The notes below the pieces were generated by a model. It ran no database searches, was not told where the DNA came from, and saw only the letters and a list, made by a program, of their open reading frames with translations. A DNA stretch of 64,000 bases, taken from Rhodothermia bacterium (GTDB taxonomy: Bacteria; Bacteroidota; Rhodothermia; Rhodothermales; UBA10348). This document shows positions 642 to 18,864 of the stretch, in pieces (positions within the stretch are counted from its first letter, which is position 1; each line of letters begins with the position of its first letter). The stretch spans positions 1,607 to 65,606 of the forward strand of contig BTQE01000002.1 in the NCBI GenBank assembly GCA_036985715.1, in the 5' to 3' direction. Both the position numbers and the translations under genes were made by a program.

Positions 642-1781
642 TCATTCGACTAGTCGGCGATACACCTCGAGTGTGCGTTCGGCGCACCTCTGGAAGTCAA
701 AAGCGGTAGTCCGCTCAACGCCTCGTTCAATGATACGCGAGCGTTCGCTACCGTCAGTTGTCGCAGCTCGAAGAGCCGATGCCATCGCCGAAATCTCGAG
801 CGGCGAACACAACCAGGCCGCGTCCCCGGCAACCTCGGCCATCGCGCCGAGATCGCTAGTGACGACAGGGCAACGGGACGCCATCGCCTCGATGATAGGA
901 AGTCCGAATCCCTCAACGAGAGAGGGGAAGAAGAAGGCTTGGGAATTGCGATACAGCGCCCTTAACTCTTCATTTCTTACGTGGCCAACGACGATGAGGC
1001 GATCCCGGATCGACGGGTCAGCGATTACTCGCTCGAACTCGCGGTCCGGTCGCCTGAGCCGCCGTACCAAAACGTAGCGCATCGGGTCGTCCGGAGCGAA
1101 AGCCCTTTCGAACGCCCTTATCGCTCGAACATGGTTCTTTCGTGGTGAACCTTGACCGACGGTAAGTACATATGGAAAAGATCCACCGACGAGGTGCTCG
1201 ACGAGCGCTCGATCGTCACCGACATCTTCCAAAAAGAACGGATCTAGCCCGCTACCCGTGACGATGATTCGAGCAGCGACTTCAGGACCGAAATGTTTTG
1301 CGATCTCGTGGGCTGAAGTAGACGATATCGTCACAAGGAGCGACGTGTGGTGCACTGCGTGTGATATGCCCCGCCTCCAGAATCGTCCAGCCGTCCAACG
1401 AAAGGCCCAGGCGGTGTCGATCAGTGCAGGATCCATCAACGGGATGACATCATGGATTGTGACCACGCTAGGCCGATTCAATCCGGAAGGCAGAAGATTG
1501 AATGTTGAGTGATAGACATCGTATGACTTCTTATTAAGGAGTCTACCTAATGAAAACCTTGTTTTGCGTGACCGAGGGGGAGCATTAAAGACAATATCGT
1601 AGCATCTGGCTGAATCGAAGCGGCCAGCCAGCCCGGGTACGCGGGTAACGAGACCATACTCGTTTACTGAGTCCACTTTCAGAAGTTGACGAAGGAGATT
1701 CTCCGTGTAGGTGGCAATACCGCTTCCGGACGCATTAAGGTACCGGGCATCGATGACGACGTTCATGCTAGGCGCTTTCAA
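642..1781 (-). CDS. Glycosyltransferase family 1 (GT4-type, GT-B fold)
   Basis: 379-aa ORF. The C-terminal region FFFPSLVEGFGLPIIEAMASRCPVVTSDLGAMAEVAGDAA is typical of Glycos_transf_1. Its start overlaps the stop of the upstream same-strand gene by 14 nt (1768-1781), which suggests an operon. Confidence 0.85.
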   Translation of the reverse strand: MKAPSMNVVIDARYLNASGSGIATYTENLLRQLLKVDSVNEYGLVTRVPGLAGRFDSARCYDIVFNAPPRSRKTRFSLGRLLNKKSYDVYHSTFNLLPSGLNRPSVVTIHDVIPLMDPALIDTAWAFRWTAGRFWRRGISHAVHHTSLLVTISSTSAHEIAKHFGPEVAARIIVTGSGLDPFFLEDVGDDRALVEHLVGGSFPYVLTVGQGSPRKNHVRAIRAFERAFAPDDPMRYVLVRRLRRPDREFERVIADPSIRDRLIVVGHVRNEELRALYRNSQAFFFPSLVEGFGLPIIEAMASRCPVVTSDLGAMAEVAGDAAWLCSPLEISAMASALRAATTDGSERSRIIERGVERTTAFDFQRCAERTLEVYRRLVE

Positions 1782-2725
1782 TCATGGCATCGCCGTCAGC
1801 TACGGCAGGGTCCGTTGAGAGCGGATTGCGACCAAAGAAGTACGTGGCGATGAAGATCAGCACGTTCGTGGAGCGTACCAGTACGCTCGACGCAACAAGT
1901 ATCCCGGCAATTGCCGTCGTGGCGATGCCCATCATGCTCGACAGCTCGACACTCGCGCTCAGAAAGAAAAGGTCCTTACTGGGTAGAAACGGTATGCGGT
2001 TCAGAACGATCAAAATAGACAAGTACGTAAGCCAAACGGAGATGGAAATGCCGGGAGCTCCAACCGACCACTGTAGAGCGATAAGAGCGTTTGCGCCCAG
2101 CAGTCGACCGTAGTGTATGCCTAGGATTCGGTAGGCGACGGGTCGCGATAATGAGAAAAGACTGTGGCGAAACTTGAATGCGACAATCACCACTACAACA
2201 ACTGCAACAGCACCGATCGCTGCGTATGAACCGTTGATCCGACCGAGTAGCGGACCGAGTAGAAGAAGCCCAGTAAGCGCCAGGATTCCGACAAGTCCGA
2301 AGGCCACGGTCATAGAGGCGACAGAAGACAAGATATTGTTGTCGCGGACGACTCGAAACGCTTCGCTGCGAGAGATCTCACTTCGCTGACTTAGCCACCA
2401 GTAGAGATAAACTTCGCCCGAATAGCCTGTCATCTCCTCATTGAAGACCCTCTTCTTCAGGAAAGCGCGAAGCCCGTCAAGGACGGGAATGGGCCACACT
2501 TGACGGTACACCAGCAGGTCGGCTACCGGTAGCGTCAGATAAATGACAACGAAAAGGACGTAGAACCAGGGATTCGTCGGCAGTGCACTCCACAACTCCT
2601 GCCAACCCAGCTGACGAAGGCGGTAGAAGAGAAATCCTACAATAGCCAGGGTGAGGAGACGGCTGCCCCACCGCAGTACGCTCTTGAGAGAATCCTTCTC
2701 CAAAAACGAGTGATCGTTGGACATG
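1768..2725 (-). CDS. Polytopic membrane protein, lysylphosphatidylglycerol-synthase-TM-region / flippase-like (UPF0104-type) family
   Basis: The track ORF is 597 aa (extending to 3561), but only the last 319 aa from the ATG at 2725 look like protein (MSNDHSFLEKDSLKSVLRWGSRLLTLAIVGFLFYRL...). That part has multiple hydrophobic helices. The upstream part of the ORF is antisense to the HD gene. Family assignment is by overall pattern. Confidence 0.6.
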
Positions 2726-3063
2726 AGCCGAGCCTGCCTCGAGTGAGCTTTCCGGTTGTGGATGAGAAAGCTACATGTCGAGTATCGTTTTACCAAAGAC
2801 GTATAGAACGAGGGTTGCAAACCATGGATGCGATTCGCTAACCCATAGTTCGATCGCAGAAAGGAACCGTGAACTGGTTTGAGGACTACAGGACATTTTG
2901 CTCCTCGCTCACATCCCTGTTGACATGCATCGGGTGGCAGCGTAATCTTCGCGCTGACCATAGACCATTGACAACGGCCCAGCTTAGACCAGTATTTTCG
3001 ACAGAACGCAGTAGCACGCGCCAGCACTTCTAACACTCTTTTATCGAACGAAAGGTCAGACTC

Positions 3064-3606
3064 ATGCGCGAAGCGGTGGAACAGCTGTGGCCAGAGCTGC
3101 AGTGGATTCAGGATTCGAATCTCAGAGAGAGCACTACCCAGACATGGGTCACCGTCATGGAGCGAAGTCCGCTCAAGCCGGAAGATCTGAATGAAATCCC
3201 ATTCACGCTCCTGATTCCGAACTGCCCGGCCACGTTTATGGAGCACAAACGATGTGTTGTGCACATTGCCAGAAAATCGGCGGAGGCGATGGATGAATTC
3301 CTCGGAAAAGGATTGCCAATAGATATGGACACCGTTATCGCAGGTGCAATACTCGCGGATGTAGGCAAACCCCTGGAATACGAAATCGTGGACGGCGAAC
3401 CGCGTCAGAGCGAGCGCGGCAAAGCTCTTCGCCATCCATTTACGGGTGTAGCTGTGGCGATGGAGTGTGGGGTACCCGACGCCGTTTGTCACATTATTGC
3501 AGCCCATGCAGCCGAAGGAGACCTGGTGAAACGATCCACTGAAGCGACGATCGTTCACCATGCCGATTTTATGAGTTATCTGCCATTCAAGAATCTTGCT
3601 GGCTGA
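3064..3606 (+). CDS. HD-domain metal-dependent phosphohydrolase
   Basis: 180-aa ORF with an H...HD-type signature (HKRCVVHIARKS...AGAILADVGKP...IIAAHAAEG...VHHADF). An in-frame stop at 3031 limits N-terminal extension. The next gene starts 40 nt downstream on the same strand. Confidence 0.75.
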   Translation: MREAVEQLWPELQWIQDSNLRESTTQTWVTVMERSPLKPEDLNEIPFTLLIPNCPATFMEHKRCVVHIARKSAEAMDEFLGKGLPIDMDTVIAGAILADVGKPLEYEIVDGEPRQSERGKALRHPFTGVAVAMECGVPDAVCHIIAAHAAEGDLVKRSTEATIVHHADFMSYLPFKNLAG

Positions 3607-3645
3607 AGCAAGCTTCGTTGTTCACGCTTACCCACTCACTTTCCT

Positions 3646-5025
3646 ATGCCCGATACGATCACTGCGAAGATGGCTCAATGGGCCACAACCTTGACGTATG
3701 ATGATCTCAGCGAGAGCGCCATTCATCAAGCTCGACGATACCTGTTGGACTCGCTCGGATGTGCCCTGGGAGGCTACGTCCAGGAAGACGTCCATATCGC
3801 TCTAAATGTCCTCGGCGAAATAGGCGGTTCAGGTCCATGCACGGTCGTCGGAACGGGCCACCAAACAGATGCAGTGACGGCTTCTCTAGCCAATGCGCTC
3901 ATGATTCGTGTGATGGATTACAATGATATCTACTGGCAGGCGGACCCATCGCATCCGTCGGACATCATTCCTGCTGCGATGGCCGGGACCGAGCGCTCAG
4001 GACTTGGCGGAAAGGAACTCATTACGGGAATTGTACTGGGACACGAGTTTGAAATGCGTCTGTGTGAGTTTGCGAAACCAGGTATTCGCGAGCGGGGATG
4101 GCACCATGCAACTCTTACAGCATTTGTCGCCCCCATTGTAATGGGGCATGCAATCGGTCTTTCCTGGGAGCAGATACAGCACGCGATCGGAATTTCTGCC
4201 TCACGTCACGCGACTCTTGGTGCGGTAACTGCCGGCAAGCTCACGATGATGAAGAATACGGTTGATCCCATGGCTACCCAGAGTGGTGTGTTCGCCGCAC
4301 TGCTCGCTGCCGAAGGATACACCGGACCGGAGCATGTGCTCGATGGGAAAGAAGGATTGATGCATTGTCTGGGTCCGGACTGGGATTTGGATCTTCTTGT
4401 GGATGGACTAGGTGAATCGTGGCGAATCGAGCGCTGCGGCATGAAAGCCTATCCGGCCGAGGCCCTCACGCACACACCGATTTCTGCCGTGATCGATATC
4501 GTTACTGAGCAGGATTTGTCGCCGGTCAGCGTGGAGAAAATTCTTGTCCGATCGCTTGCTCGTGCGGCCGATATTCTCGCGGACCCGTCCAAATACGATC
4601 CTCGTTCAAAGGAAAGTGCCGATCACAGTCTTCCGTATGTTATCGCGGCTGCTTTGGTCGACCGGCAGGTCACGCCGCTTCAGTTCAAACAAGATCGAAT
4701 TATGAGCGAGGATATCCGATCGCAACTGAAAAAAGTTGAAGTGGTCGCAGATCCTGAAATAGAAGCGGTATTTCCCGAGCTGCAGCGCGTCATCGTCACC
4801 ATTACGACCACCGACGGACAGGAGTACACCAAGCAGCTGGACTATCCGAAAGGAGATCCACGAAATCCTCTAACGGATGCGGACGTGGAGGAGAAGTTTG
4901 ATGCCCTGGCGGCGCCGGTCATGTCCAGTGACGCTAGAAGTAGGCTCAAGGATGCCGTTTGGCATCTTGAGGATGCCGAATCCGTGTCAGACTTTATGGC
5001 ACTCTGTAGAGCAGACATATCCTGA
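3646..5025 (+). CDS. MmgE/PrpD-family protein (2-methylcitrate dehydratase-like)
   Basis: 459-aa ORF. The N-terminus (AQWATTLTYDDLSESAIHQARRYLLDSLGCALGG) and the overall length are typical of the PrpD family. Substrate specificity cannot be read from the sequence. Confidence 0.85.
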   Translation: MPDTITAKMAQWATTLTYDDLSESAIHQARRYLLDSLGCALGGYVQEDVHIALNVLGEIGGSGPCTVVGTGHQTDAVTASLANALMIRVMDYNDIYWQADPSHPSDIIPAAMAGTERSGLGGKELITGIVLGHEFEMRLCEFAKPGIRERGWHHATLTAFVAPIVMGHAIGLSWEQIQHAIGISASRHATLGAVTAGKLTMMKNTVDPMATQSGVFAALLAAEGYTGPEHVLDGKEGLMHCLGPDWDLDLLVDGLGESWRIERCGMKAYPAEALTHTPISAVIDIVTEQDLSPVSVEKILVRSLARAADILADPSKYDPRSKESADHSLPYVIAAALVDRQVTPLQFKQDRIMSEDIRSQLKKVEVVADPEIEAVFPELQRVIVTITTTDGQEYTKQLDYPKGDPRNPLTDADVEEKFDALAAPVMSSDARSRLKDAVWHLEDAESVSDFMALCRADIS

Positions 5026-6982
5026 ACAGGGGCTTCTCATCGGTCAGACTATAGCAGAAAAGATCGCCCAGGCCCACAAGGTGGAAGGACCAGACCGACC
5101 TTTCCAGGCCGGTGACGTTGTATCGCTGCGTCCGCGGCATGTCATGACCCACGACAACACCGCCGCAGTCATGACGAAGTTTCAAGCGATCGGTGCCTCG
5201 GAGATGTTCGATCGCAAACAGCCCGTTTTTCCCATGGATCACGACGTGCAGAACAGGTCGGAATCCAATCTTGAGAAGTACCGATCCATCGAGGCTTTCG
5301 CGAAAGAAATGGACGTCGATTTCTATCCGCCGGGAACGGGGATCAGTCACCAGGTGATGGTCTCACACGGGTACGTTCTTCCTGGGGCGCTGGTGGTGGG
5401 ATCGGACTCTCATTCCAATATGTATGGCGCGCTCGGCGCGCTCGGGACTCCGGTCGTTCGAACAGATGCAGCGGCCATTTGGGCCACGGGCGAATTTTGG
5501 TGGCAGATCCCTCAGACGGTCCAGGTAATTCTGAATGGTCGTCTTCGACCGGGCGTATCCGGAAAAGACGTAATTGTCACGCTCTGTGGGATGTATAACC
5601 AGGGTGAAGTCCTGAATGCAATCGTCGAATTTGCAGGACCGGGAATTGAGCATCTGTCCATCGATGAGCGCATGACCATATCTAATATGACGACCGAGTG
5701 GGGTGCGTTGGCCGGATGGTTTCAGGTTGACGAGCAGACCATTCAATACTTGCAGCACCGAAAACGCATTCTGGATTTGAAGGGAATTGAACGCTTCACC
5801 GAATCCGATCTGGAGGACTGGCTGACGGATCCGCCCGAGCCTGATGAGGACGCCTCGTACGCCGCCCGAATAGAAATGGACCTGGACTTGGTCAGCCCTC
5901 ATGTATCGGGGCCGGACTCTGTGCAAGTCATGCGTTCACTAAGGGATATTGAGAAAGAGCGCGTCGAGATTCAGAAAGCCTATTTGGTTTCGTGTGTGAA
6001 TAGCCGGCTGGGAGACCTTGAGGTAGCCGCCGATGTTCTACGAGGAGAGAAAATTGCTGACCACGTTGAGTTTTATGTTGCCGCGGCCAGTAAGGAAATA
6101 CAGACGCAGGCGGAGGAGTCGGGCACCTGGGGAGAGCTTCTGGAAGCCGGAGCTCGGCCCCTTCCGTCCGGATGTGGCCCCTGTATCGGATTGGGAAGAG
6201 GACTTCTGGAGTCAGGTGAAGTAGGTATTTCAGCAACGAATCGTAACTTCAAGGGACGCATGGGATCAAGAGATGCTCAGACATACCTCGCAAGCCCGCA
6301 GGTGGTGGCTGCATCGGCTATCGCAGGATATATCTGTGGGCCGGAAGTAGCGGACAGTACAACTCCGGATTATCGATTCGAAGAGTATAAAGCAGAAGTG
6401 GCGACTGTGCGGGTAGACATCCTGGATGGATTCCCCCAATTGGTCAGCGGAAGACTGGTTTTCACTCCGCAAGACAACCAGAATACAGACGGAATTTATG
6501 GCAAGGACTATACGTACCGGGAAGGAATGACTCCTGAAGAAATGGCGGCAGTCGTCATGGAAAATTACGACCCCGAATTTGCTGGTCGGACCGAGGAAGG
6601 CGATATCCTAGTCGGCGGATATAATTTTGGAACTGGATCGAGTCGCGAACAGGCCGCAACGGCGCTAAAATTCAAAGGAATTTCCCTCGTTATTGCGGGC
6701 AGTTTTTCCCAAACTTACTTGCGCAACGCCTACAACAACGGGTTCGTCTGTATCGATTGTCCGGAATTCGTGAATGAACTCAAACACGAGTTTTCTGACG
6801 AGATTGCAGCATCGACGTTGACCATTATTCCGGGTGATAAGTTGGAGGTCGACTTTGAGGTCGCATCCGTCAAATACCGGAATCAGGTGTATCGATTCCG
6901 CCCCCTTGGATCCGTTCCACAATCACTCGTAGTAGCAGGCGGTATCGAGAACGTTGTCAAGAATCGATTGGGGATCTCATAA
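4973..6982 (+). CDS. Aconitase-superfamily hydro-lyase with fused large (LeuC-like) and small/swivel (LeuD-like) domains; homoaconitase/aconitase-like
   Basis: GQTIAEKIAQAH..HVMTHDNT, VVGSDSHSNMYGALG, and Fe-S ligand cysteines in VSCVNSR and SGCGPCIGLG. The C-terminal swivel domain carries GGYNFGTGSSREQAATALK. The start is uncertain: the track start at 4877 lies deep inside the PrpD-family gene, and the nearest canonical start is the ATG at 4973, which overlaps that gene by 53 nt. Confidence 0.8.
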   Translation: MPNPCQTLWHSVEQTYPEQGLLIGQTIAEKIAQAHKVEGPDRPFQAGDVVSLRPRHVMTHDNTAAVMTKFQAIGASEMFDRKQPVFPMDHDVQNRSESNLEKYRSIEAFAKEMDVDFYPPGTGISHQVMVSHGYVLPGALVVGSDSHSNMYGALGALGTPVVRTDAAAIWATGEFWWQIPQTVQVILNGRLRPGVSGKDVIVTLCGMYNQGEVLNAIVEFAGPGIEHLSIDERMTISNMTTEWGALAGWFQVDEQTIQYLQHRKRILDLKGIERFTESDLEDWLTDPPEPDEDASYAARIEMDLDLVSPHVSGPDSVQVMRSLRDIEKERVEIQKAYLVSCVNSRLGDLEVAADVLRGEKIADHVEFYVAAASKEIQTQAEESGTWGELLEAGARPLPSGCGPCIGLGRGLLESGEVGISATNRNFKGRMGSRDAQTYLASPQVVAASAIAGYICGPEVADSTTPDYRFEEYKAEVATVRVDILDGFPQLVSGRLVFTPQDNQNTDGIYGKDYTYREGMTPEEMAAVVMENYDPEFAGRTEEGDILVGGYNFGTGSSREQAATALKFKGISLVIAGSFSQTYLRNAYNNGFVCIDCPEFVNELKHEFSDEIAASTLTIIPGDKLEVDFEVASVKYRNQVYRFRPLGSVPQSLVVAGGIENVVKNRLGIS

Positions 6983-7032
6983 TCCTTTCATTCCTTATTT
7001 AACATTCTGGATTATTCCGAACGAGTAGCCAT

Positions 7033-8220
7033 ATGACAAGACCCACAGTGGTAACCATGCCCGGAGACGGCATTGGAGAAATAGTTCTACCCGAGGCACT
7101 CAAGGTGCTCGACGCAGTTGGGTGGGACGCAAACTACGTCCACGCTGATATCGGTTGGGAATTTTGGAAGAGTGAGGGGAATCCGCTCCCTGAGCGTACG
7201 ATCGATCTACTTCGTGAACACAAACTGGGACTTTTTGGTGCGATCACATCCAAGCCTAAAAATAAGACCGTCGCAGAACTGAACCCTGAGCTTCACGACC
7301 AAGGATTGGTCTATTTCAGCCCGATTGTGGCGATGCGACAACTATTTAATTTGGATATCTGCATTCGGCCGTGCCGATCTTTCGAGGGGAATTTGCTCAA
7401 TTTCGCGCGCCAGACGGCAGGAGGCGGATTTGAAGAGCCACCGGTCGACGTGGTCGTTTTCAGGCAAAACACCGAGGGACTATACTGCGGCATTCAATGG
7501 ACGAATCCGTCGGGCGAAGTGCGGGGAGCCTTAGCCTCGCACCCCAAATATCAACCCTTCGCTGAAGTCCCGAGCGCAGATCTTGCGATGGCTGTTCGAC
7601 TTTTCACGCGAAACGCGTGTCACAGGATTCTACTCGGCGCCTTCGAGTATGCCAGGAAATATGGTTACACGTCGGTCACAGTGTGTGAGAAGCCCAATGT
7701 GCTTCGGGAGACGTCCGGCATGATGGAAGAGGAGGCCAGAAAGATCCACGAGGATTTTTCTGACATTCAGCTCTGGTCCACGAACATCGACGCGCAAATG
7801 ATGTGGCTCACCAAGAATCCGGAGGACTATGGCGTGATCGTTTCAGGGAATCTTTTTGGTGATATTGTTTCAGACGCTTTTGCCGGTTTGGTAGGTGGAC
7901 TCGGTTTCGCGTGTTCGGGGAATATTGGGGACGACGTTGCCGTGTTCGAACCGACGCATGGATCTGCTCCGAAATATGTCGATCTTGATCCGTCTATTGT
8001 AAACCCGATCGCCATGATTCTGAGCGCTGCCATGATGCTGGATCACATGGGCGAATCAGATAAGGCAACGCTCGTCAGAAAAGCCGTCGCGACGGTTGTC
8101 AGCGACGGACGCGTGCGGACGTATGACATGATGCGAATTCCTGGCGGTTCGAACTCCGTTGAACAGGGGGCGGCAACAACCCGGCAAATGACAGACGCAA
8201 TAGTTGAAGCGCTTGGATAA
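7033..8220 (+). CDS. Isocitrate/isopropylmalate dehydrogenase-family beta-decarboxylating dehydrogenase (Icd-like)
   Basis: 395-aa ORF with MPGDGIGEIV, LFGAITSKP, MRQLFNLDICIRPCR (compare E. coli Icd [15 protein letters not shown]), and GNLFGDIVSDAFAGLVGGLG. Confidence 0.85.
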   Translation: MTRPTVVTMPGDGIGEIVLPEALKVLDAVGWDANYVHADIGWEFWKSEGNPLPERTIDLLREHKLGLFGAITSKPKNKTVAELNPELHDQGLVYFSPIVAMRQLFNLDICIRPCRSFEGNLLNFARQTAGGGFEEPPVDVVVFRQNTEGLYCGIQWTNPSGEVRGALASHPKYQPFAEVPSADLAMAVRLFTRNACHRILLGAFEYARKYGYTSVTVCEKPNVLRETSGMMEEEARKIHEDFSDIQLWSTNIDAQMMWLTKNPEDYGVIVSGNLFGDIVSDAFAGLVGGLGFACSGNIGDDVAVFEPTHGSAPKYVDLDPSIVNPIAMILSAAMMLDHMGESDKATLVRKAVATVVSDGRVRTYDMMRIPGGSNSVEQGAATTRQMTDAIVEALG

Positions 8221-8229
8221 CTTCAGATT

Positions 8230-9447
8230 ATGGGGAAGGTTAAAATCGATCGATCATCAAGTGTACGTCAAGGCACCGCCGGACGGGCGGATGCCGACGC
8301 GCGATCAGACCTGTCAGTTTCCGTTCATGGCGATGACTCAGGCGAGCTGAAACTGGATATTCAGTCAAAAGTCGAGGCGTTTTACGGCCCTTCGATCCGA
8401 AAAACAGTGGCTGACGCCCTGAAAGCGTTTGGTTTTACGAGCGGACGAGTGGACGTGAACGACCGCGGCGCCCTCCCGTTTGTCATCAGAGCGCGCCTTG
8501 AAACCGCATTGCGACGCGCCGGATACAAAGGTGACGGCCTTGTAAAGCGCAAAAGAGGCAAACGACAATCAACGGAGCGGGACCGCCTACGCAGATCAAG
8601 GCTCTATTTGCCGGGAAACGAGCCGAAGTTCATGATCAATGCCGGCTTGCACCGTCCGGACGCTGTCATTCTGGATCTCGAGGATTCGGTCCATCCGGTT
8701 GAAAAGAACGCAGCCAGACTCTTAGTCCGAAATGCATTGGCAGAAGTAGATTTCATGGGAGCCGAACGGATGGTTCGCATCAATCAACTTCCCTTGGGTC
8801 TAGACGACCTGGACGCGATTGTGCCCGAATTGCCTGACCTGATTCTACTTCCCAAAATTGAGGGTGCGACCGAAGTCAAACACGTGCACAGACGGATTGC
8901 CAGGATTCTAAAAGCGGTCGGTAAGGATAAAGTAATATGGCTAATGCCCATTTTGGAGTCCGCGCTGGGCATCGAGAATGCGTTTGGAATTGCGTCTGCC
9001 GCGGAGACCGTAGTGGCTCTTGCGATGGGATTGGAGGATTATACCGCCGACCTGGATGTTAGAAAAACACTGGAAGGACGAGAGTCTCTTTATGCGAGAA
9101 TGAGGCTTGTGAACGCCGCGCGAGCGGCTGGAGTCCAGGCGAATGACTCGGTGTTCAGTGATGTGGCGGACACGGCAGGTCTATCGGCGTGGGCCACCCG
9201 ATCCAGAGGTATGGGCTATGATGGTATGGGATGTATCCACCCCAGGCAAATCGAACTCATTCACGAGGCATTCGCTCCGACATCGAATGAAATCGAGCAA
9301 GCCCAAAGAATTTGCGACGCGTTCCGAGCCGCCGAGTCCAAAGGATTGAGCGTGGTCAGTTTAGGCTCGCGGATGATTGATCCGCCGGTCGTGTTGCGCG
9401 CAAGACAATTGGTCGAGAATGCTCGGAAAGCAGGGCTTATCCATTAA
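8230..9447 (+). CDS. citE: Fusion of citrate lyase acyl carrier protein (gamma, CitD-like, about aa 1-100) and citrate lyase beta subunit (citryl-ACP lyase, CitE-like)
   Basis: The N-terminal LDIQSKVEAFYGPSIRKTVADALK...VDVNDRGALPFVIRARLETAL matches remembered E. coli CitD (LQINSSVEKQFGDAIR...VDDKGALDCILRARLEALL). A basic linker follows. The rest matches CitE: LYLPGNEPKF..ILDLEDSV, AMGLEDYTADL, GMGCIHPRQIE, GLSVVSLGSRMIDPPVV. Confidence 0.85.
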   Translation: MGKVKIDRSSSVRQGTAGRADADARSDLSVSVHGDDSGELKLDIQSKVEAFYGPSIRKTVADALKAFGFTSGRVDVNDRGALPFVIRARLETALRRAGYKGDGLVKRKRGKRQSTERDRLRRSRLYLPGNEPKFMINAGLHRPDAVILDLEDSVHPVEKNAARLLVRNALAEVDFMGAERMVRINQLPLGLDDLDAIVPELPDLILLPKIEGATEVKHVHRRIARILKAVGKDKVIWLMPILESALGIENAFGIASAAETVVALAMGLEDYTADLDVRKTLEGRESLYARMRLVNAARAAGVQANDSVFSDVADTAGLSAWATRSRGMGYDGMGCIHPRQIELIHEAFAPTSNEIEQAQRICDAFRAAESKGLSVVSLGSRMIDPPVVLRARQLVENARKAGLIH

Positions 9448-9484
9448 TCGGAAAACAACGACGAGCCGAACATCGCTCAGCTTG

Positions 9485-11068
9485 ATGAATCGTATGGGAA
9501 AAGAGGCATCAGTTACGTCATTCGCTGTCAACAAGCTCGGCAGGAGAGTTCCTACAGAAGTGAATGGGACTCTGATCGTGCCCTACAAGGGCGCGAAAGG
9601 ATATAAGCCAAAGGGTTTCAAACACGGCCCGTCCATTCGTTCCAGCCGGGATTACCCTCGTAGTGGCGATAAACGCGTACCGGACCTTACGACGGCGTTG
9701 AAAAAATGCGGACTGAAGGATGGAATGGTAATCTCGTCCCATCACCATCTTCGGAATGGCGACCAAGTTGCTCTGCTGGCGCTTCAGACTGCAGGAAGGA
9801 TGGGAGTGAAAGACCTTGTCTGGTTTCCAAGTGCTTCGTTTCCATGTCAGGAGCCGGTGATTGACCTGATGAAGAACGGCGTCGTGCACCACATTGAAGG
9901 CAGCATGAACGGCCCACTTGGCGAATATTGCTCCAGAGGCAAGATGCGTGGGATGGGCGTACTGCGATCCCATGGAGGTCGATGGCAAGCCGTTCAGGAC
10001 GGCGAAATCAAAATCGATATCGCGATTATCGCCGCCCCTACGGCGGATCCATTTGGCAACGCTGATGGATCTCACGGCCCGTCGGCGTGTGGTTCGCTCG
10101 GCTTCGCCCTTGTCGATTCGATTTATGCTGAAAATGTGATCGTTGTCACCGACAATCTCGTACAATTTCCGTGTCATCCGTGGGAAATCCAGGGAAACAA
10201 CGTGGACTACGTGGTTGAGGTTGAGTCGATAGGAGACCCGGAAAAAATCGTTTCCGGTACCACCCAGATCACCAAGAGCCCGGATCGCCTGTTGATTGCC
10301 GAGTATGTGGCACGGTTCATCAGGGACGCCGGTATCATGAAAGACGGCTTCTCATTTCAGGCAGGGGCAGGCGGTATTGCGCTGGCTTTCGTTGATTTTC
10401 TTAAGGAAATGATGCGGGATGCGGGCATCAGAGCTCGATTTGTTCGCGGTGGGTCAACACAGTATTTGGTTGATATGCTTGAGGAGGGCCTGACCGACTA
10501 CATACTTGACGGACAGACATTTGATTTAGCAGGGGTCGAATCTATAGGTTCGCATCCCAATCACGTAGCGACGACGCCGTTTACGTCCTATAATTTTCAC
10601 GGGAAAGGAAATTTCGCTAGCCTCGTAGATGCTGTTGTGCTTGGGGCTACGGAAGTCGACATCAATTTTAATGGAAACGTTGTCACCCATTCCGATGGGT
10701 TGTTGCTTCATGGAATCGGCGGGTGGCAAAATTGCCTGGCTGGTGGCTGTACGATCCTGGCCGTACCCGCGTTTCGAGATCGTATTCCGGTGATTGTGGA
10801 TGAGGTTACAACGATCACAGGTCCGGGAGAATTGATTGACGTGGTTGTATGTGAGAGGGGTATCGCGATTAATCCTCGCAGGAAAGATCTCTTGCGTAGG
10901 CTACGGAACTCCGATTTGCCCATACGACCGATTGACGACATACAGAAGGAGGTTCGAAATCTATTGGGTGGTAAACCCAGAAAAGCCCGCATCTCTGACA
11001 CGCCGGTCGCCGTAATCAAGTGGATTGATGGTACTGTCATTGACACCGTTTGGCAGGTGCCCGAATAA
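9485..11068 (+). CDS. citF: Citrate lyase alpha subunit (citrate CoA-transferase, CitF)
   Basis: GLKDGMVISSHHHLRNGD (compare E. coli GLQDGMTVSFHHAFRGGD). The C-terminus TPVAVIKWIDGTVIDTVWQVPE nearly matches E. coli DRVVAVVRYRDGSVIDVVHQVKE. The start was moved from the track value 9377 to the ATG at 9485, downstream of the CitE stop. The ATG at 9494 is also possible. Confidence 0.88.
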   Translation: MNRMGKEASVTSFAVNKLGRRVPTEVNGTLIVPYKGAKGYKPKGFKHGPSIRSSRDYPRSGDKRVPDLTTALKKCGLKDGMVISSHHHLRNGDQVALLALQTAGRMGVKDLVWFPSASFPCQEPVIDLMKNGVVHHIEGSMNGPLGEYCSRGKMRGMGVLRSHGGRWQAVQDGEIKIDIAIIAAPTADPFGNADGSHGPSACGSLGFALVDSIYAENVIVVTDNLVQFPCHPWEIQGNNVDYVVEVESIGDPEKIVSGTTQITKSPDRLLIAEYVARFIRDAGIMKDGFSFQAGAGGIALAFVDFLKEMMRDAGIRARFVRGGSTQYLVDMLEEGLTDYILDGQTFDLAGVESIGSHPNHVATTPFTSYNFHGKGNFASLVDAVVLGATEVDINFNGNVVTHSDGLLLHGIGGWQNCLAGGCTILAVPAFRDRIPVIVDEVTTITGPGELIDVVVCERGIAINPRRKDLLRRLRNSDLPIRPIDDIQKEVRNLLGGKPRKARISDTPVAVIKWIDGTVIDTVWQVPE

Positions 11069-12786: not shown

Positions 12787-14097
12787 ATGACTTCAAGCCG
12801 CCAGGAGGCGCTTCGCGAACTGGAGCGAATTGAACACGGCGGAGCATTCATCGGGCTTGCCCGACGGTCCAGGGCTTCTAAGATCGAGCATGACGGAAAG
12901 CTGTCTGATCTGGTTGCCGGAGTAACGAGGCGGCGGCGCTGGCTCGATTTTCTGGTGGATCAGTTCTATGAGGGAGATCCAGAGTCTCTAGAACCAGCCG
13001 TTCGGAATATTCTTCGCATGGGCGTGTATGAATTGTTACATACGCAGACGCCGGATCATGCCGTGGTGAATGAAAGCGTCAACTGTGCTAAGGCGGAGGT
13101 CGGTAAACGGGTTACCGGGCTGGTGAATGGTATTCTCAGACGTACGATTAGAGAAAGAAATTCCCTGCCGGCGCCAACCGGTACCGGGCCCGTGGATGCA
13201 CTCGCAATAGCTCACTCTCATCCCACCTGGATGGTTGAGCGTTGGTTCGATCGCCTGGGGGAATCGAAAACGGTCGACTTGCTTGAGCACAACAATGAGC
13301 GGCCTCGATTCGGTCTGCGTCTTCGAACACTGGACCGATCCAAGCTTCTTGAACAGATGGTAGACGAGGGGGCCGAAGCGTCGCCGTTTTTCGAGGACTT
13401 CATCCGGTCGACAAGGCTGCATCCATTCTTTCGGGAGGGACTTGTGCAGGAAGGAGCGCTACTCGTTCAAGACGAAGCCGCTGGTGGCGTCGTACGGGTC
13501 GTGGACCCGCAACCGGGTGAGAGAATACTTGATGCCTGCGCCGCTCCTGGCGGCAAAGCGATATACATGGCTGACCTGGTAGGCACTACCGGACTCATCA
13601 TGGGTATCGACAACAACGAGTCTCGTCTTCGACTTCTTGAGTCAGAGGCAAATCGCTTGAATCTTCCGCAGGTTAAGACGCGTGTTGTCGACCTTCGGGA
13701 ACGTTCTGAGTCAGAGATAGGGGAGCAGTATGACAAAGTCTTATTGGATGCACCATGTTCAGGGCTGGGCGTACTGTCGAAAAGGGCCGACCTCAGGTGG
13801 AGGTCAAGCCTGGACCAGATTGACGAGCTCTCACGGCTTCAGGATGAACTCCTCGATACCGTGAGCCGATTTGTTAAACTGGGGGGATTACTCGTCTACA
13901 GTACGTGTACCCTGGAGCCCGAGGAGAACGAAGACAGAGTGAGCGCCTTTTTGAAACGAAACAAGACATTCTATCTGGAGCCTGTTCAGGATGCAGTACC
14001 CGCTCCACTGGTGGACGTAGAGGGGCATTACCGAACCCTTCCCTACGAGAGCGCCATCGACGGGGCGTTCGCGGCCCGATTGCGGAAGGTTGCCTGA
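12787..14097 (+). CDS. rsmB: 16S rRNA (cytosine967-C5)-methyltransferase RsmB (NusB-like N domain plus NOL1/NOP2/Sun methyltransferase)
   Basis: 436 aa with HPTWMVERW, LDACAAPGGK, LLDAPCSGLGV, LVYSTCTLEPEENE. Confidence 0.85.
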   Translation: MTSSRQEALRELERIEHGGAFIGLARRSRASKIEHDGKLSDLVAGVTRRRRWLDFLVDQFYEGDPESLEPAVRNILRMGVYELLHTQTPDHAVVNESVNCAKAEVGKRVTGLVNGILRRTIRERNSLPAPTGTGPVDALAIAHSHPTWMVERWFDRLGESKTVDLLEHNNERPRFGLRLRTLDRSKLLEQMVDEGAEASPFFEDFIRSTRLHPFFREGLVQEGALLVQDEAAGGVVRVVDPQPGERILDACAAPGGKAIYMADLVGTTGLIMGIDNNESRLRLLESEANRLNLPQVKTRVVDLRERSESEIGEQYDKVLLDAPCSGLGVLSKRADLRWRSSLDQIDELSRLQDELLDTVSRFVKLGGLLVYSTCTLEPEENEDRVSAFLKRNKTFYLEPVQDAVPAPLVDVEGHYRTLPYESAIDGAFAARLRKVA

Positions 14098-14261: not shown

Positions 14262-15392
14262 ATGTTTCGAGTACAACGATTTAATTCACCCTACCTGCGT
14301 TTTCTGACATTGGCGGTTGCGGTTCTCTTCGCCAACGTCTTCCTGGTCAGTCCGATATTTGGTCAGAAAGTGGCCAAGTACGGGGCGGATTTCCTGGCAG
14401 GAGGGGTTGGTGCCAGAGCGCTGGGAATGGGCGGTGCGCATATCGCTATTGCCTCTGATGCCAATGCAGGGTATTGGAATCCTGCCGGATTGGAAGGAAT
14501 CACGTACCCCGAGATTTCCTACATGCATGCAGAGCGGTTTTCAGGAGTGGTCTCATTTGATTTCGCTGGGGTAGCGTGGCCGCTTTCAGATATTTCTACC
14601 ATCGGTGTTTCGTTCTATCGGAGTGGGGTCAACGATATTAAGAACACCCTCGATGCTTGGGATTCTGAACGAAATGCCCCGAAGCCCAATCCGGAAGATT
14701 TTATTACATCGTTTTCGGCAGCGGATTATGCATTTTTCTTTGGATACGGACGAACGATTTCACGCAAGGTCCGAATCGGCGTTACGGGTAAGATCATCCG
14801 CAGGACCATCGGCGACTTTGCAGACGCGTGGGGGTACAGTTTTGACGTGGGTTTGCAGTATCGGTCGAAGAATCTTTTCCTCGGCTTCAACGCTCAGGAT
14901 ATCACAACCATGTTGCAGAGCTGGAGTGTTAACGATGCGGCGCTGATCAATATTCGAGACGTGTTCGGTGACGATTTGCCGAAAGGAGGCACGGAGCTGG
15001 TTCTCCCCGTTCTTCGACTCGGGAGCGGCTATATGATTCACTACACGGAGGCAGATCTTACGTTCGCGTTCGACGTGGATGTAGCGTTTGATGGCCAGCA
15101 GGCAAATGCCATCAACCTGGGCGATGCATCATTTCATCCTCGTCTCGGGGTTGAGTACATGTACAAGGGGGTCGTTGCACTTCGCGGCGGCTTCAGTCGT
15201 ATTCAGCATTCAACAAAAGATGGCTGGGACGTGACACCTTCGGTCGGAGCGGGATTTCGAATCAAGCAGATCCAGATAGACTATGGCTTCGGAGATTTTG
15301 CCGGTTTAGTTTCTGAACTCGGTTTTTCGCATCGTATTTCGCTCAAATTCTCGGTCATGAATGAGCGTTTCCGACGAGACCAGCCCGATTGA
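14262..15392 (+). CDS. PorV/PorQ-family outer-membrane beta-barrel protein
   Basis: Signal peptide followed by the family-typical GADFLAGGVGARALGMGGAHIAIASDANAGYWNPAGL. The rest shows an alternating beta-strand pattern and ends in ...ISLKFSV. Confidence 0.65.
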   Translation: MFRVQRFNSPYLRFLTLAVAVLFANVFLVSPIFGQKVAKYGADFLAGGVGARALGMGGAHIAIASDANAGYWNPAGLEGITYPEISYMHAERFSGVVSFDFAGVAWPLSDISTIGVSFYRSGVNDIKNTLDAWDSERNAPKPNPEDFITSFSAADYAFFFGYGRTISRKVRIGVTGKIIRRTIGDFADAWGYSFDVGLQYRSKNLFLGFNAQDITTMLQSWSVNDAALINIRDVFGDDLPKGGTELVLPVLRLGSGYMIHYTEADLTFAFDVDVAFDGQQANAINLGDASFHPRLGVEYMYKGVVALRGGFSRIQHSTKDGWDVTPSVGAGFRIKQIQIDYGFGDFAGLVSELGFSHRISLKFSVMNERFRRDQPD

Positions 15393-16572: not shown

Positions 16573-16583
16573 TTAAGGAACCA

Positions 16584-17345
16584 ATGCAGTTCAACAAGGA
16601 TGATTGGTTTAGTATGGGAGGAAGCCTTGTGCTTCATCTGGTGCTACTGTTGATGTTATCTCTCATGATGGGTGTCTCGTCAGAAGAGACTCCGGTCGGC
16701 TTTATCGAAGTAGATTTCGGTCCATTTGCCGAGGGCCGACCGGTTGTCAGCGCTCGTCCACAGCTCGAAGACTTCACTCATGGACCGGAAGAGGCAGACC
16801 CGCAAGAGGAGGAGCAGCCGGCTGTCGCTCCACCAGAAGAGGTTCGACCCGTCGATTTGCCTGAACAGGTCGTGGAAATTGATGATTCCGAGGTCGTCGA
16901 CATTCCCGAGGCTGAAACCATTGCCCCGGACGAGTCTCAAGCGGAGGAAGATATTGTTGACGAAGTACCCCAACCGGCTACCGAGACGATTCAACCTCTT
17001 GGAAGCGGGTCCCTGACGGACATCCATGGAGACGAACCGGGTGATGCAGGGGATTCGAATGATCCCGAAAAATCATCACCCTTCCAGATAGAAGGACTGA
17101 ACAGAGTCCCCGTCAGTACACCGTTGCCTGTCTATTCGGAACAGGTTAACGCGATTATTCAAGTCCGGATTGTCGTGGATCCACAGGGCCGCCTCATTCG
17201 CCGGATCCCTCTTCTCAAAGGAAATGCCAGCCTGGAAAAAGCCGTCATGGACGCCTTGCTGCGATGGCGCTTCAACCCACTTCCGGCTAACGCACCACAG
17301 GAAAATCAGACCGGGCAGGTCACGTTCCGTTTTACGCTTCGTTAG
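16584..17345 (+). CDS. TonB-family energy transducer
   Basis: N-terminal TM anchor (GGSLVLHLVLLLMLSLMM), an acidic Pro/Glu-rich linker, and a C-terminal TonB_C-like domain (PVYSEQVNAIIQVRIVVDPQGRL...LLRWRFNP). Confidence 0.75.
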   Translation: MQFNKDDWFSMGGSLVLHLVLLLMLSLMMGVSSEETPVGFIEVDFGPFAEGRPVVSARPQLEDFTHGPEEADPQEEEQPAVAPPEEVRPVDLPEQVVEIDDSEVVDIPEAETIAPDESQAEEDIVDEVPQPATETIQPLGSGSLTDIHGDEPGDAGDSNDPEKSSPFQIEGLNRVPVSTPLPVYSEQVNAIIQVRIVVDPQGRLIRRIPLLKGNASLEKAVMDALLRWRFNPLPANAPQENQTGQVTFRFTLR

Positions 17346-18851: not shown

Positions 18852-18864
18852 AGAAATCTTAAAA

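Follow-up and report, generated by a model that had tools for sequence, protein, structure and literature searches.

A conserved six-gene operon that may encode an ACP-bound homocitrate lyase together with a split isomerase and a homoisocitrate dehydrogenase

Why should the genes of a citrate lyase-type enzyme be packed together with those of an aconitase-family hydro-lyase, an MmgE/PrpD-family protein and a beta-decarboxylating dehydrogenase? The question is raised by positions 3064-11068 of the window, the whole stretch of 64,000 nucleotides of Rhodothermia bacterium DNA that was analysed, where six closely packed, co-directional genes on the plus strand encode an HD-fold protein, an MmgE/PrpD-family protein, a fused LeuC/LeuD-type hydro-lyase, an Iso_dh-family dehydrogenase, a CitD::CitE fusion and CitF. 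The spacers between them are +39, -53, +50, +9 and +37 nt in that order, and gene calls and spacers both agree with the six same-strand genes, spaced from a 53-nt overlap to a 50-nt gap, of the original prediction.

The single operon-like module proposed there was borne out in related genomes, as the order HD-PrpD-Acn-Idh-CitDE-CitF is complete on one strand in 49 of 82 independent loci from at least six phyla. The order is kept in essentially all related loci long enough to show it, the incomplete ones being mostly cut by contig ends. Carriers include Terriglobales, Gemmatimonadota, Rhodothermales, Latescibacterota, Krumholzibacteria, Eisenbacteria and Akkermansiaceae, and a PrpD-family search of 185,579 species genomes found this gene in at least 594. 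The related loci encode proteins 54-86% identical to those of the window. Since the concatenated tree mostly tracks taxonomy and between-phyla identity is about 70%, the operon is, judged from its sequences, an old unit under strong constraint. No conserved gene flanks it among the sampled neighbours of the 82 loci, the flanks being unrelated, and the six genes are a real operon, one self-contained module. The neighbourhood, which the prediction had considered might be common and functionally assigned already, is indeed common, but no functional assignment was found; a literature search gave no description of the six-gene operon, which has apparently never been characterised before.

A plain alternative is that ordinary housekeeping aconitase and isocitrate dehydrogenase (IDH) genes chance to adjoin citrate lyase, with no special pathway. 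Conservation at the level of core metabolism, mostly tracking taxonomy, would suit it, but a six-gene order that includes the HD and PrpD-family genes and is fixed across phyla amid unrelated flanks would not, nor would the number of genomes with PrpD-family matches. In addition, the hydro-lyase and dehydrogenase fail all aconitase and IDH equivalogs, the former passing the homoaconitase one instead, and a canonical citrate synthase gene lies directly upstream of the operon in one locus, making this alternative very improbable.

The 339-nt intergenic region 5' of the HD gene (2725-3063, assigned to neither strand), delimited from sequence and from the gene calls of an identical Logan contig, is divergent from a minus-strand gene and is the probable candidate for the promoter region of the operon. 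A sigma-70 scan of this region gave hits no more numerous than in shuffled sequence, and Rfam returned no riboswitch in it or in seven related loci. In Terriglobales loci the region 5' of the HD gene holds a conserved CTCGAC-N17-TAAGCT/TAATCT pair, a clear -35/-10 pair that is consistent with a single operon. An antisense ORF of 597 aa over the HD gene (1768-3561) was rejected as over-extended, the real minus-strand gene ending at 2724.

The hydro-lyase (4973-6982, plus strand, 669 aa) fuses the large and small subunits of the aconitase family. Its start at 4973, placed by the gene callers (the longest ORF begins at 4877), overlaps the end of the MmgE/PrpD-family gene by 53 nt. The protein passes the NCBI homoaconitase equivalog TIGR00139 with 727.7 bits against a cut-off of 529.9, and lies below cut-off for all AcnA, AcnB and PRK07229 aconitase models and for the LeuC/LeuD models. 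Family members are labelled homoaconitase by NCBI and JGI, the best PDB match is the large subunit of M. jannaschii homoaconitase, and the specificity loop of the small domain has Arg, like homoaconitase (YLRT) and unlike isopropylmalate isomerase (YLVY). It is proposed to be a homoaconitase of the fungal Lys4 type, which would interconvert cis-homoaconitate and homoisocitrate. Fungal homoaconitases catalyse homoaconitate <-> homoisocitrate only, the homocitrate step needing a second enzyme (PMC3556520), so the restriction to the hydration half-reaction that had been predicted for such enzymes is documented.

For the Iso_dh-family beta-decarboxylating dehydrogenase (7033-8220, plus strand, 395 aa; PF00180), the best NCBIfam models were the homoisocitrate dehydrogenases AksF2 and AksF together with LEU3_arch, none of them reaching its cut-off, and all IDH equivalogs failed by a wide margin, e.g. 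172 versus 567 bits. Ser113 of E. coli IDH is kept, but Ile invariantly takes the place of Asn115, which in IDH binds the gamma-carboxylate. All of 69 family members have the SPIV motif, and the loop SPIVAMR matches SSPIVALR of S. pombe homoisocitrate dehydrogenase (PDB 3ty3). The SP[IV] loop, like a 15-residue insertion, also occurs in a broader Iso_dh clade that is uncharacterised and has members fused to a CinA-like domain, so that the motif does not mark homoisocitrate dehydrogenases alone; by whole-protein PDB score, an NAD-IDH (6lky) stands above the homoisocitrate dehydrogenases. The motif HGSAPKY is invariant, and its APKY, for which the Thermus homoisocitrate dehydrogenase and an NAD-IDH carry APDI, presumably denotes NADP specificity, a reading adopted from the E. 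coli IDH literature. The proposed reaction is homoisocitrate + NADP+ <-> 2-oxoadipate + CO2 + NADPH.

The lyase set is complete in the operon, with an ACP domain, a CitE-type domain and CitF, and many of its residues are invariant. The CitD::CitE fusion (8230-9447, plus strand, 405 aa; PF06857 68 bits, PF03328 162 bits) consists of an ACP at about residues 1-100 and a CitE/HpcH-type acyl-thioester C-C lyase at about residues 119-402, its best PDB matches being malyl-CoA lyase, CitE and CLYBL. The ACP part passes the PRK13253 citrate lyase gamma subfamily model (66.5 versus 65) and has a conserved AG-x8-RSD motif, in which Ser26, invariant in 61 sequences, is the candidate residue for attachment of the prosthetic group. 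CitF (9485-11068, plus strand, 527 aa; PF04223, 452 bits), for which a longer TTG ORF from 9377 exists beside the called start, shows 71-80% identity in 58 loci, 232 of its 527 residues being invariant, and is aligned to positions 22-491 of 492 of the citF model TIGR01584, just under its cut-off (497.1 versus 501.45 bits). With the CitE part at only 267.9 bits against 443.4 for the NCBI citE equivalog, to call the two "true citrate lyase orthologues", as the prediction did, was an overstatement. The fusion is proposed to act as homocitryl-S-ACP lyase, and CitF as the alpha subunit, an acyl-ACP:carboxylate ACP-transferase that would use acetyl-S-ACP and homocitrate and free acetate.

Citrate is still a candidate substrate because CitF lies near the citF cut-off and the ACP passes the gamma model. 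In the split-aconitase citrate/isocitrate shunt that had been predicted as one option, the lyase would be a genuine citrate lyase, the PrpD-family and Lys4-like enzymes would share the aconitase reaction, and an NADP-IDH would give the net reaction 2-oxoglutarate + CO2 + NADPH <-> oxaloacetate + acetate. The collinearity of CitF to the model end, the upstream citrate synthase of one locus, and a dehydrogenase that is locally most like bacterial NADP-IDH, with the Ser113 equivalent and the APKY motif, would all suit such a shunt. Against it stand the hydro-lyase, with its homoaconitase pass and its failure in all aconitate hydratase equivalogs, the Ile at the Asn115 position, the wide failure of the IDH models and the low citE score. 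Moreover, citrate is prochiral and one aconitase-type enzyme could perform both half-reactions, so that nothing would explain the strict conservation of the PrpD-family gene. This shunt is regarded as unlikely, and homocitrate and homoisocitrate, one carbon longer, appear the likelier pair because the hydro-lyase passes TIGR00139 and the dehydrogenase lacks Asn115 and has the loop of the fungal homoisocitrate dehydrogenase.

The MmgE/PrpD-superfamily protein (3646-5025, plus strand, 459 aa; Pfam MmgE_PrpD_N and MmgE_PrpD_C, 238 and 151 bits) has 71-78% identity across phyla and 198 of 459 residues invariant in 83 sequences. Both PrpD equivalog cut-offs are missed (87 versus 950 bits; 62 versus 458 bits), the former ruling out a PrpD orthologue. 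The nearest solved structures are iminodisuccinate (IDS) epimerase (8e-36), B. subtilis IRG1 (2e-34) and cis-aconitate decarboxylase (1e-30), the matches to the epimerase and the IRG1/cis-aconitate decarboxylases spanning E 8e-36 to 1e-26, compared with only 1e-16 for true PrpD. By these matches the protein belongs with the epimerase and decarboxylase branch rather than with PrpD, and the earlier label "PrpD-type dehydratase" was an assumption. It is proposed here as an Fe-S-independent dehydratase/hydratase interconverting homocitrate and cis-homoaconitate, a role against which it counts that its nearest relatives are an epimerase and decarboxylases and include no dehydratase. These relatives would accord with a decarboxylase that turns cis-(homo)aconitate into itaconate or 2-methyleneglutarate, or with an epimerase of the iso-acid, in a branched or rewired pathway. 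A decarboxylase would leave the lyase and dehydrogenase without an obvious joint role, either activity would deprive the homoaconitase of the partner dehydratase that such enzymes are known to need (PMC3556520), and the neighbours sampled at the 82 loci include neither a hydratase nor a CoA-transferase gene of itaconate degradation; such a function is considered decidedly doubtful.

The HD-fold protein (3064-3606, plus strand, 180 aa; PF01966, 32 bits), encoded by the first gene, is the best conserved of the six, with 72-86% identity in 75 loci, and is an integral sixth component. It also matches the HDIG domain model TIGR00277, but its metal motif is atypical, the HD dyad being replaced by Ala98-Asp99; Cys54, Cys64, Cys135, Cys142 and seven His are invariant in a 26-sequence alignment. 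A PDB sequence search gave nothing better than E 0.05, and Foldseek with the AF2 model (pLDDT 83) found the YhaM HD domain as best match (TM 0.69) and otherwise generic HD matches only. Our guess is that this protein might serve the carrier thiol or its prosthetic group.

Considering substrate assignments that rest throughout on homology and motifs, the operon is best explained, at somewhat less than an even chance, as an ACP-bound homocitrate lyase with a split isomerase and an NADP-type homoisocitrate dehydrogenase. The Iso_dh-family enzyme would interconvert 2-oxoadipate plus CO2 and homoisocitrate, the Lys4-type homoaconitase would interconvert homoisocitrate and cis-homoaconitate, the sole half-reaction known for such enzymes, and the MmgE/PrpD-family protein would provide the other half-reaction, cis-homoaconitate <-> homocitrate. 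CitF would then transfer the carrier thiol (acetyl-S-ACP + homocitrate -> homocitryl-S-ACP + acetate), and the CitE domain would cleave homocitryl-S-ACP to 2-oxoglutarate and acetyl-S-ACP. The net reaction, which we write as 2-oxoadipate + CO2 + NADPH <-> 2-oxoglutarate + acetate + NADP+, would be a CoA- and ATP-independent route between C6 and C5 2-oxoacids; the originally predicted scheme, from 2-oxoacid and CO2 through iso-acid and ene-acid to a citrate-type acid that the lyase cleaves, holds in general. CitE-type lyases are si-type ((3S)-citryl), and therefore the homocitrate handled should be the (S)-enantiomer. Its acetate arm would be placed where aconitase-family enzymes cannot dehydrate, and a PrpD-family enzyme would be needed; the same stereochemical constraint underlies the pairing of PrpD and aconitase in the methylcitrate cycle. 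Aconitases perform trans-eliminations only, hence the separate dehydratase for methylcitrate (PMC3556520).

What counts against the homocitrate lyase pathway is that the ACP would have to be activated without local citC, citX and citG, none of which was found either within the 64 kb of the window or in the neighbourhoods sampled around the 82 loci; in this the operon is unlike citCDEFXG loci, as had been predicted. We know of no homocitrate lyase and no metabolism of (S)-homocitrate, and a literature search for the former returned nothing.

Cleavage, funnelling 2-oxoadipate into the citric acid cycle, is slightly the likelier direction; the invariant NADP-type APKY motif was counted for it, and the known ACP-type lyases, citrate lyase and citramalate lyase, act catabolically. 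A biosynthetic or central role would suit the vertical inheritance and the very high conservation no less well than niche catabolism. The same enzymes might instead carry out an acetyl-CoA-independent elongation with the lyase as "synthase", written as 2-oxoglutarate + acetate -> 2-oxoadipate + CO2 + NADPH, which could be iterated like the methanogen Aks pathway and feed alpha-aminoadipate/lysine or another product. Besides this conservation, no catabolic regulators, transporters or lysine-catabolism genes occur among the sampled neighbours of the 82 loci, the Lys4- and Lys12-like features stem from a biosynthetic pathway, the best dehydrogenase HMMs, AksF, represent enzymes of iterative elongation, and the overall reaction is estimated from standard transformed Gibbs energies to be near equilibrium, so that a product sink could pull it. 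Nevertheless, condensation has no driving force without thioester hydrolysis, we know of no ACP-type lyase that acts as a synthase, and the Gram-negative carrier lineages are expected to make lysine via the diaminopimelate route. The same sampled neighbours contain no gene for a LysW-type protein, an aminotransferase or homocitrate synthase, and no lysine, 2-aminoadipate or 2-oxoadipate gene recurs among them. Biosynthetic elongation is accordingly judged improbable.

Among known systems, citrate lyase CitDEF (with CitC, CitX and CitG; EC 4.1.3.6; citCDEFXG of Klebsiella/E. coli) and the ACP-dependent citramalate lyase have the same three functional parts as the homocitrate lyase proposed here, a PF06857-type ACP, a CitE/HpcH-type acyl-thioester lyase and a CitF-type ACP transferase, with CitF near the citF threshold. 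In contrast to citrate lyase, the ACP is fused to the lyase subunit and bears AG-x8-RSD in place of AGTLES(S/G)D, the CitE part falls far short of the citE cut-off, citC, citX and citG are not linked, and the lyase is always packaged with the HD protein, PrpD-family protein, homoaconitase and Iso_dh enzyme.

The methanogen 2-oxoacid elongation (AksA, AksD/E, AksF) resembles the operon in its dehydrogenase, AksF2 and AksF being the best HMMs, and in the M. jannaschii homoaconitase, the best solved relative of the hydro-lyase large domain. However, all scores here are below the Aks equivalog cut-offs, an AksA-type synthase is missing, and the methanogen homoaconitase performs both half-reactions with no need of a PrpD-type partner. 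The opening steps of the fungal alpha-aminoadipate pathway to lysine (Lys20/21 homocitrate synthase, Aco2 + Lys4, Lys12) resemble the operon in three respects: the homoaconitase is of the fused Lys4 type and here passes TIGR00139, the dehydrogenase loop reads SPIVA(L/M)R, as in the S. pombe homoisocitrate dehydrogenase, and the isomerisation is split over two enzymes. They differ in that the operon has an ACP-type lyase instead of homocitrate synthase, a PrpD-family protein instead of aconitase as the second isomerase enzyme, and a dehydrogenase with an NADP-type motif and the 15-residue insertion, and the downstream lysine genes are not linked.

In the 2-methylcitrate cycle (PrpC, PrpD, AcnB, PrpB), the dehydratase is a PrpD of which the 459-aa protein is no orthologue, and the operon has neither PrpC nor PrpB. 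Here a beta-decarboxylating dehydrogenase follows, by which the tertiary alcohol of 2-methylisocitrate is, on chemical grounds, not oxidisable. The logic of the two is nevertheless the same, a si-type product being dehydrated by a member of the MmgE/PrpD superfamily and rehydrated by an aconitase-family enzyme (PMC3556520).

Six genes on the plus strand of the window (3064–11068) form a compact unit, as delimited by gene calls and family models. The window belongs to a metagenome-assembled genome (MAG) of Rhodothermia (Bacteroidota). They encode an HD-domain protein (180 aa, 3064–3606), an MmgE/PrpD-family protein (459 aa, 3646–5025), a fused aconitase-family hydro-lyase (669 aa, 4973–6982), an Iso_dh-family dehydrogenase (395 aa, 7033–8220), a citrate-lyase-type acyl carrier protein (ACP) fused to a CitE/HpcH-type lyase (CitDE, 405 aa, 8230–9447), and CitF (527 aa, 9485–11068). 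The six proteins are identical to NCBI GMQ80648–GMQ80653 and to those of a Logan contig. The tight packing described in the original prediction was borne out by measured spacers of +39, −53, +50, +9, and +37 nt, and the 53-nt overlap between the PrpD-family and hydro-lyase genes is probably real because no alternative hydro-lyase start codon follows the PrpD-family stop. A 597-aa open reading frame (ORF) antisense to the HD gene (1768–3561, minus strand) was rejected as an over-extension with no family match. In the gene calls this minus-strand gene extends only to 2724, with a 318-aa product that has a weak LPG_synthase_TM-like match, and the HD frame rather than the antisense ORF is the one conserved at other loci.

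Downstream, an M28-family peptidase gene (11050/11068–12765, plus strand) begins at or overlaps the CitF stop codon and may be co-transcribed with the operon in this genome. In the comparison of 82 loci, the peptidase gene adjoined the operon in none of the others, and the downstream RsmB gene was not conserved at any of them. Two RsmB/F-type rRNA methyltransferase genes lie less than 5 kb apart in the window (12787–14097, plus strand; 17376–18980, minus strand) with a PorV2-like type IX secretion gene (14262–15392) between them, and the remainder of the 64 kb encodes housekeeping functions, heme A/O synthases, an acetyl-CoA synthetase, and enzymes of tyrosine catabolism.

The hydro-lyase passed the homoaconitase equivalog (NCBIfam TIGR00139, 727.7 bits against a cut-off of 529.9) and fell below the cut-off of every aconitate hydratase model, namely AcnA, AcnB, PRK07229 (381 against 612), and the mitochondrial one, as well as those of the LeuC/LeuD models. 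Its relatives are named "homoaconitase" or "homoaconitate hydratase" by NCBI and JGI, and among solved structures the Methanocaldococcus jannaschii homoaconitase large subunit is nearest to it. In M. jannaschii, the specificity loop reads YLRT in homoaconitase and YLVY in isopropylmalate isomerase; the corresponding loop in the small-subunit-like domain of the hydro-lyase reads YTYRE, with an Arg conserved in the family that would point to a substrate with a third carboxylate. The original prediction held that homoaconitase-type enzymes catalyze only the hydration half-reaction, and this is documented for the fungal and Thermus enzymes, which interconvert only homoaconitate and homoisocitrate and leave the homocitrate step to another enzyme (PMC3556520).

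The dehydrogenase reached no curated cut-off. Its top scores came from the methanogen homoisocitrate dehydrogenases AksF2 (262.7 bits against 540) and AksF (248.4 against 500) and from the archaeal LeuB/isohomocitrate group, and it remained far below all isocitrate dehydrogenase (IDH) equivalogs, for example TIGR00183 (172 against 567). Alignment with E. coli IDH showed that Ser113 is kept and that Asn115, which we take to be a ligand of the isocitrate γ-carboxylate, is invariably replaced by Ile. Across 69 family members the S-P-I-V motif that results does not vary, and the loop SPIVAMR matches SSPIVALR of Schizosaccharomyces pombe homoisocitrate dehydrogenase (PDB 3ty3); the same loop reads GAIRYLR in Thermus homoisocitrate dehydrogenase and RS(L/V)NV(A/T)LR in IDHs. 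The cofactor motif HGSAPKY is also invariant in the family, as against APDI in the Thermus enzyme and a NAD-IDH, and such an APKY-type motif presumably indicates NADP(H), as in the E. coli IDH literature.

When 1.8 billion representatives were searched exhaustively and the ten nearest full-length relatives scanned with NCBIfam, the SP(I/V) loop, together with a 15-residue insertion immediately preceding it, turned up in a clade wider than the operon dehydrogenases. None of the ten relatives reached a curated cut-off, and the dehydrogenase clade is therefore uncharacterized. Judged from its residues, the SP(I/V) loop would exclude IDH-type and IPMDH-type pockets; it is no proof of homoisocitrate specificity, because the wider clade carries it too. 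Several of the nearest relatives outside the family are about 715–765 aa long (P0412, P0415, P0420, P0422, P0423, P0427, P0428, and P0430) and share the insertion and the loop with the operon dehydrogenase. The three that were scanned (P0412, P0415, and P0423) are fusions of an Iso_dh domain to a MoCF_biosynth/CinA-like domain, and the function of this group appears to be uncharacterized.

In the lyase, CitF scored 497.1 bits against the TIGR01584 citF cut-off of 501.45, with a full-length alignment to the model end. The ACP domain matched PF06857 (68 bits), narrowly passed PRK13253 (66.5 against 65), and missed TIGR01608 (53.5 against 63.5). Where AGTLES(S/G)D would be canonical, the domain has AG-x8-RSD; Ser26 of this motif does not vary among 61 sequences and is placed by the HMM register one position after the canonical prosthetic-group Ser. 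The CitE-like domain lay below the citE equivalog (TIGR01588, 267.9 bits against 443.4) and, in PDB comparisons, was about equally close to malyl-CoA lyase (the best match), CitE, and CLYBL. The accessory genes citC, citX, and citG were absent beside the operon in the 82 loci, from a census of 85 neighboring ORFs, and from the 64-kb window. A citrate/isocitrate shunt with a split aconitase, as first proposed, would suit the near-canonical CitF and ACP. The missing IDH Asn115 and scores short of the aconitase, IDH, and citE cut-offs speak against it, and we regard it as rather unlikely.

The PrpD-family protein is, by its model scores, not a PrpD orthologue, since it lay below the PrpD equivalogs NF042438 (87.1 against 950), NF006943 (77.6 against 575), and TIGR02330 (62.5 against 458). 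Its PDB matches were iminodisuccinate epimerase (E 8e-36), Bacillus subtilis IRG1 (2e-34), and the mammalian and fungal cis-aconitate decarboxylases (1e-30 to 1e-26), and 2-methylcitrate dehydratases (PrpD) followed with only 1e-16. Even so, its conservation is extreme, with no change at 198 of its 459 residues among 83 sequences. A role as decarboxylase or epimerase would leave the other operon enzymes without a joint role and seems quite improbable. A methylcitrate pathway was also considered and rejected, the tertiary alcohol not being oxidizable by an Iso_dh enzyme.

The HD protein is the most conserved of the six components. It has an HD fold (PF01966, 32 bits; AF2 model with pLDDT 83), and Foldseek on the model gave the YhaM HD domain as the best match (TM 0.69), the others all being HD proteins. 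The H...HD...D metal-binding motif of HD-domain metal-dependent phosphohydrolases is not kept: the dyad is Ala98-Asp99, invariant in 26 sequences. Cys 54, 64, 135, and 142 and seven His are invariant, and the four Cys lie near the dyad. The PDB sequence search, the AF2 model, and Foldseek yielded generic HD-fold matches only, with no specific relative of known function.

The original prediction ran from a 2-oxoacid and CO2 through an iso-acid and an ene-acid to a citrate-type acid that a lyase splits into acetate and a shorter 2-oxoacid. This scheme fits the gene set; of the substrates it considered, the citrate series now seems less likely than the homo-series. From comparisons of this kind we infer the substrates, stereochemistry, and direction of the pathway, together with the ACP prosthetic group and the HD function. 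The operon most likely works, to judge by its sequences, in the homo-series, because both enzymes that allow a judgment of specificity indicate that series: 2-oxoadipate, CO2, and NADPH would be interconverted with homoisocitrate, cis-homoaconitate, homocitrate, and finally 2-oxoglutarate plus acetate. Dividing the isomerization between two enzymes would then have a precedent in the fungal and Thermus homoaconitases (PMC3556520).

CitE-type lyases have si-type geometry, their substrates being (3S)-citryl thioesters. The same geometry on 2-oxoglutarate would give (S)-homocitrate, which is the enantiomer of the (R)-homocitrate used in making lysine and, to our knowledge, a compound not known in biology. 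Its acetate arm would occupy a position that aconitase-family enzymes could not dehydrate, because they perform trans-eliminations only. From established stereochemistry, the presence of a PrpD-family partner rather than an aconitase would thus have a stereochemical reason. The strict conservation of the PrpD-family gene in turn argues against citrate, because prochiral citrate needs no such partner.

The overall reaction would lie close to equilibrium by our own estimate from standard transformed Gibbs energies, with the direction set by sinks. We lean slightly toward cleavage, because catabolism is where ACP-type lyases are known to act and because the site of the dehydrogenase is of the NADP(H) type; biosynthetic homoisocitrate dehydrogenases use NAD+. 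Elongation for biosynthesis would employ the same chemistry and is really a question of direction. The high conservation, vertical inheritance, and lack of a linked catabolic gene suit a biosynthetic or central role equally well; we regard elongation as rather unlikely.

A GTDB search with the PrpD-family protein as the query (one genome per species) found relatives encoded at at least 594 loci, the best 80 of which were 71–77% identical to the window protein. The matches listed included Gemmatimonadota, many Terriglobales and other Acidobacteriota, Rhodothermales, Latescibacterota, Eisenbacteria, Polarisedimenticolaceae, and one Akkermansiaceae genome, and protein look-ups added Krumholzibacteria. 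When all six window proteins were compared by tblastn with 82 non-redundant loci (numbered L in what follows), the order HD-PrpD-Acn-Idh-CitDE-CitF, where Acn and Idh are the hydro-lyase and the dehydrogenase, was complete, full-length, and on one strand in 49. The majority of the incomplete loci were cut by contig ends and true exceptions were few: L030 carries a rearranged operon, L042 and L018 are without the HD gene, a few loci have partial genes, and L059 is without both lyase genes, with no synthase downstream to take their place. Relative to the window proteins, median identities were 78% (HD), 75% (CitF), 73% (PrpD-family), 69% (Idh), 64% (Acn), and 58% (CitDE). That the operon merely joins housekeeping acn and icd genes to a neighboring citrate lyase is very unlikely, given the failed aconitase and IDH equivalogs and a six-gene unit fixed across loci.

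Clustering of all flanking ORFs at the 82 loci revealed no common neighbor beyond lineage-specific synteny, and in a Pfam census of 85 immediate neighbors from 35 diverse loci each family occurred at two loci at most. The flanks contained no paralogues of the operon genes; homocitrate synthase (LeuA/NifV family) and downstream lysine genes were found neither in the operon nor in the census and did not recur in the flanks of the 82 loci. In a neighbor-joining tree of the six concatenated proteins (50 loci, 2587 columns), the topology largely tracked taxonomy, with Terriglobales monophyletic, the two Rhodothermales paired, and Krumholzibacteria beside Latescibacterota. Identity over the six proteins was about 70% between phyla and 74–81% within them. 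The fixed order in 49 of 82 loci, the lack of shared neighbors, and the taxonomy-like tree therefore mark the operon as a self-contained module that is old, evolves slowly, and has been inherited mostly vertically.

The operon tolerates lineage-specific ORF insertions with its gene order kept. One Terriglobales lineage (14 loci) carries an ORF of ~155 aa between the PrpD-family and homoaconitase genes (L079:10516–10980, L053:10502–10969, L072:10323–10961) that is DinB-like by eye (HxxxH...HHHxGQ pattern). A small HTH-like ORF and a 359-aa ORF lie between Acn and Idh at L071:12445–14001, a 357-aa ORF between PrpD and Acn at L016:10756–11829, and a 163-aa ORF between Idh and CitDE at L034:13019–13510 and L035:13932–14423. 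In several MAGs, for example the Gemmatimonadota chromosome CP070716, the homoaconitase or CitF gene is partly covered or uncalled (L003:11397–13340 and 15853–16686; L026, L031, L037, L038, L044, and L048), and these may be frameshifts, pseudogenes, or assembly errors. One Gemmatimonadota lineage has a phosphofructokinase-family gene that ends inside the HD gene start (ATGACGAGCGATGTCTGA), at L003:8244–9443 and in the same position in L006, L012, L014, L045, and L056, which suggests translational coupling with the operon in that lineage. In an Acidobacteria MAG, a canonical 440-aa citrate synthase gene (L077:1470–2792) precedes the operon by 220 nt and is co-directional with it. This is the sole citric-acid-cycle gene seen beside the operon, and ordinary genes of this cycle therefore coexist with it in at least one genome.

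The original prediction of a single operon accords with a conserved −35/−10 pair just upstream of the HD gene in Terriglobales, which fits HD as the first gene of a transcription unit. Rfam gave no riboswitch in the window region or seven loci, sigma-70 and terminator scans produced hits no more frequent than in shuffled sequence, and no upstream motif common to different phyla was found. Some Acidobacteriota loci (L033, L037, L049, L050, L059, L061, and L070) share a conserved TCACA-N6-TGTGA palindrome that lies about 70–90 nt upstream of HD. This palindrome, found neither in the window nor in other phyla, may be a regulator binding site.

In the full-text literature searched, with subscription journals largely outside it, no description of the six-gene operon was found and the term "homocitrate lyase" had zero occurrences. 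All the enzyme families are known; the novelty lies in how they are combined, in the lyase specificity and the intermediate that this implies, and in the atypical HD component. A more far-reaching joint reading is put forward only tentatively. It would comprise an unrecognized pathway with the first homocitrate lyase (ACP-bound and acting on (S)-homocitrate), an MmgE/PrpD-family homocitrate dehydratase filling the "missing half" of bacterial homoaconitase, and a Cys/His-rich HD-fold accessory factor for ACP-type lyases that replaces CitC, CitX, or CitG functions, with a bacterial lineage as the source of fungal Lys4 and Lys12.

If the proposal is true, a large share of soil and sediment bacteria, including Terriglobales, Gemmatimonadota, and several candidate phyla mostly known from metagenomes, would carry an unrecognized and energy-neutral route that connects C6 2-oxoacids with C5 2-oxoacids and acetate. 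A lyase specificity would be new, and (S)-homocitrate would possibly be a new metabolite. The atypical HD protein and one MmgE/PrpD subfamily, among many that are orphans, would acquire a function, and the fungal-type homoaconitase would gain a bacterial context. The automated names "citrate lyase", "homoaconitase", "2-methylcitrate dehydratase", and "HDIG protein", now unconnected, would be corrected together; such names can mislead metabolic reconstructions, for example where reductive TCA or lysine-biosynthesis capacity is inferred.

Compared with known systems, the operon differs from citrate lyase (CitDEF, EC 4.1.3.6) in that its beta part is not a citE equivalog and that citC (ligase), citX, and citG (prosthetic group) were found neither beside it in the 82 loci nor in the 64-kb window. 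With the front end of the alpha-aminoadipate pathway it shares a Lys4-type homoaconitase equivalog, by the TIGR00139 match, but no homocitrate synthase or downstream lysine genes lie in the operon or recur in the flanks of the 82 loci. In the methylcitrate cycle, (2S,3S)-methylcitrate is converted by a separate dehydratase to a cis-ene acid that aconitase rehydrates (PMC3556520), and the (S)-homocitrate of the operon scheme would be in the same situation.
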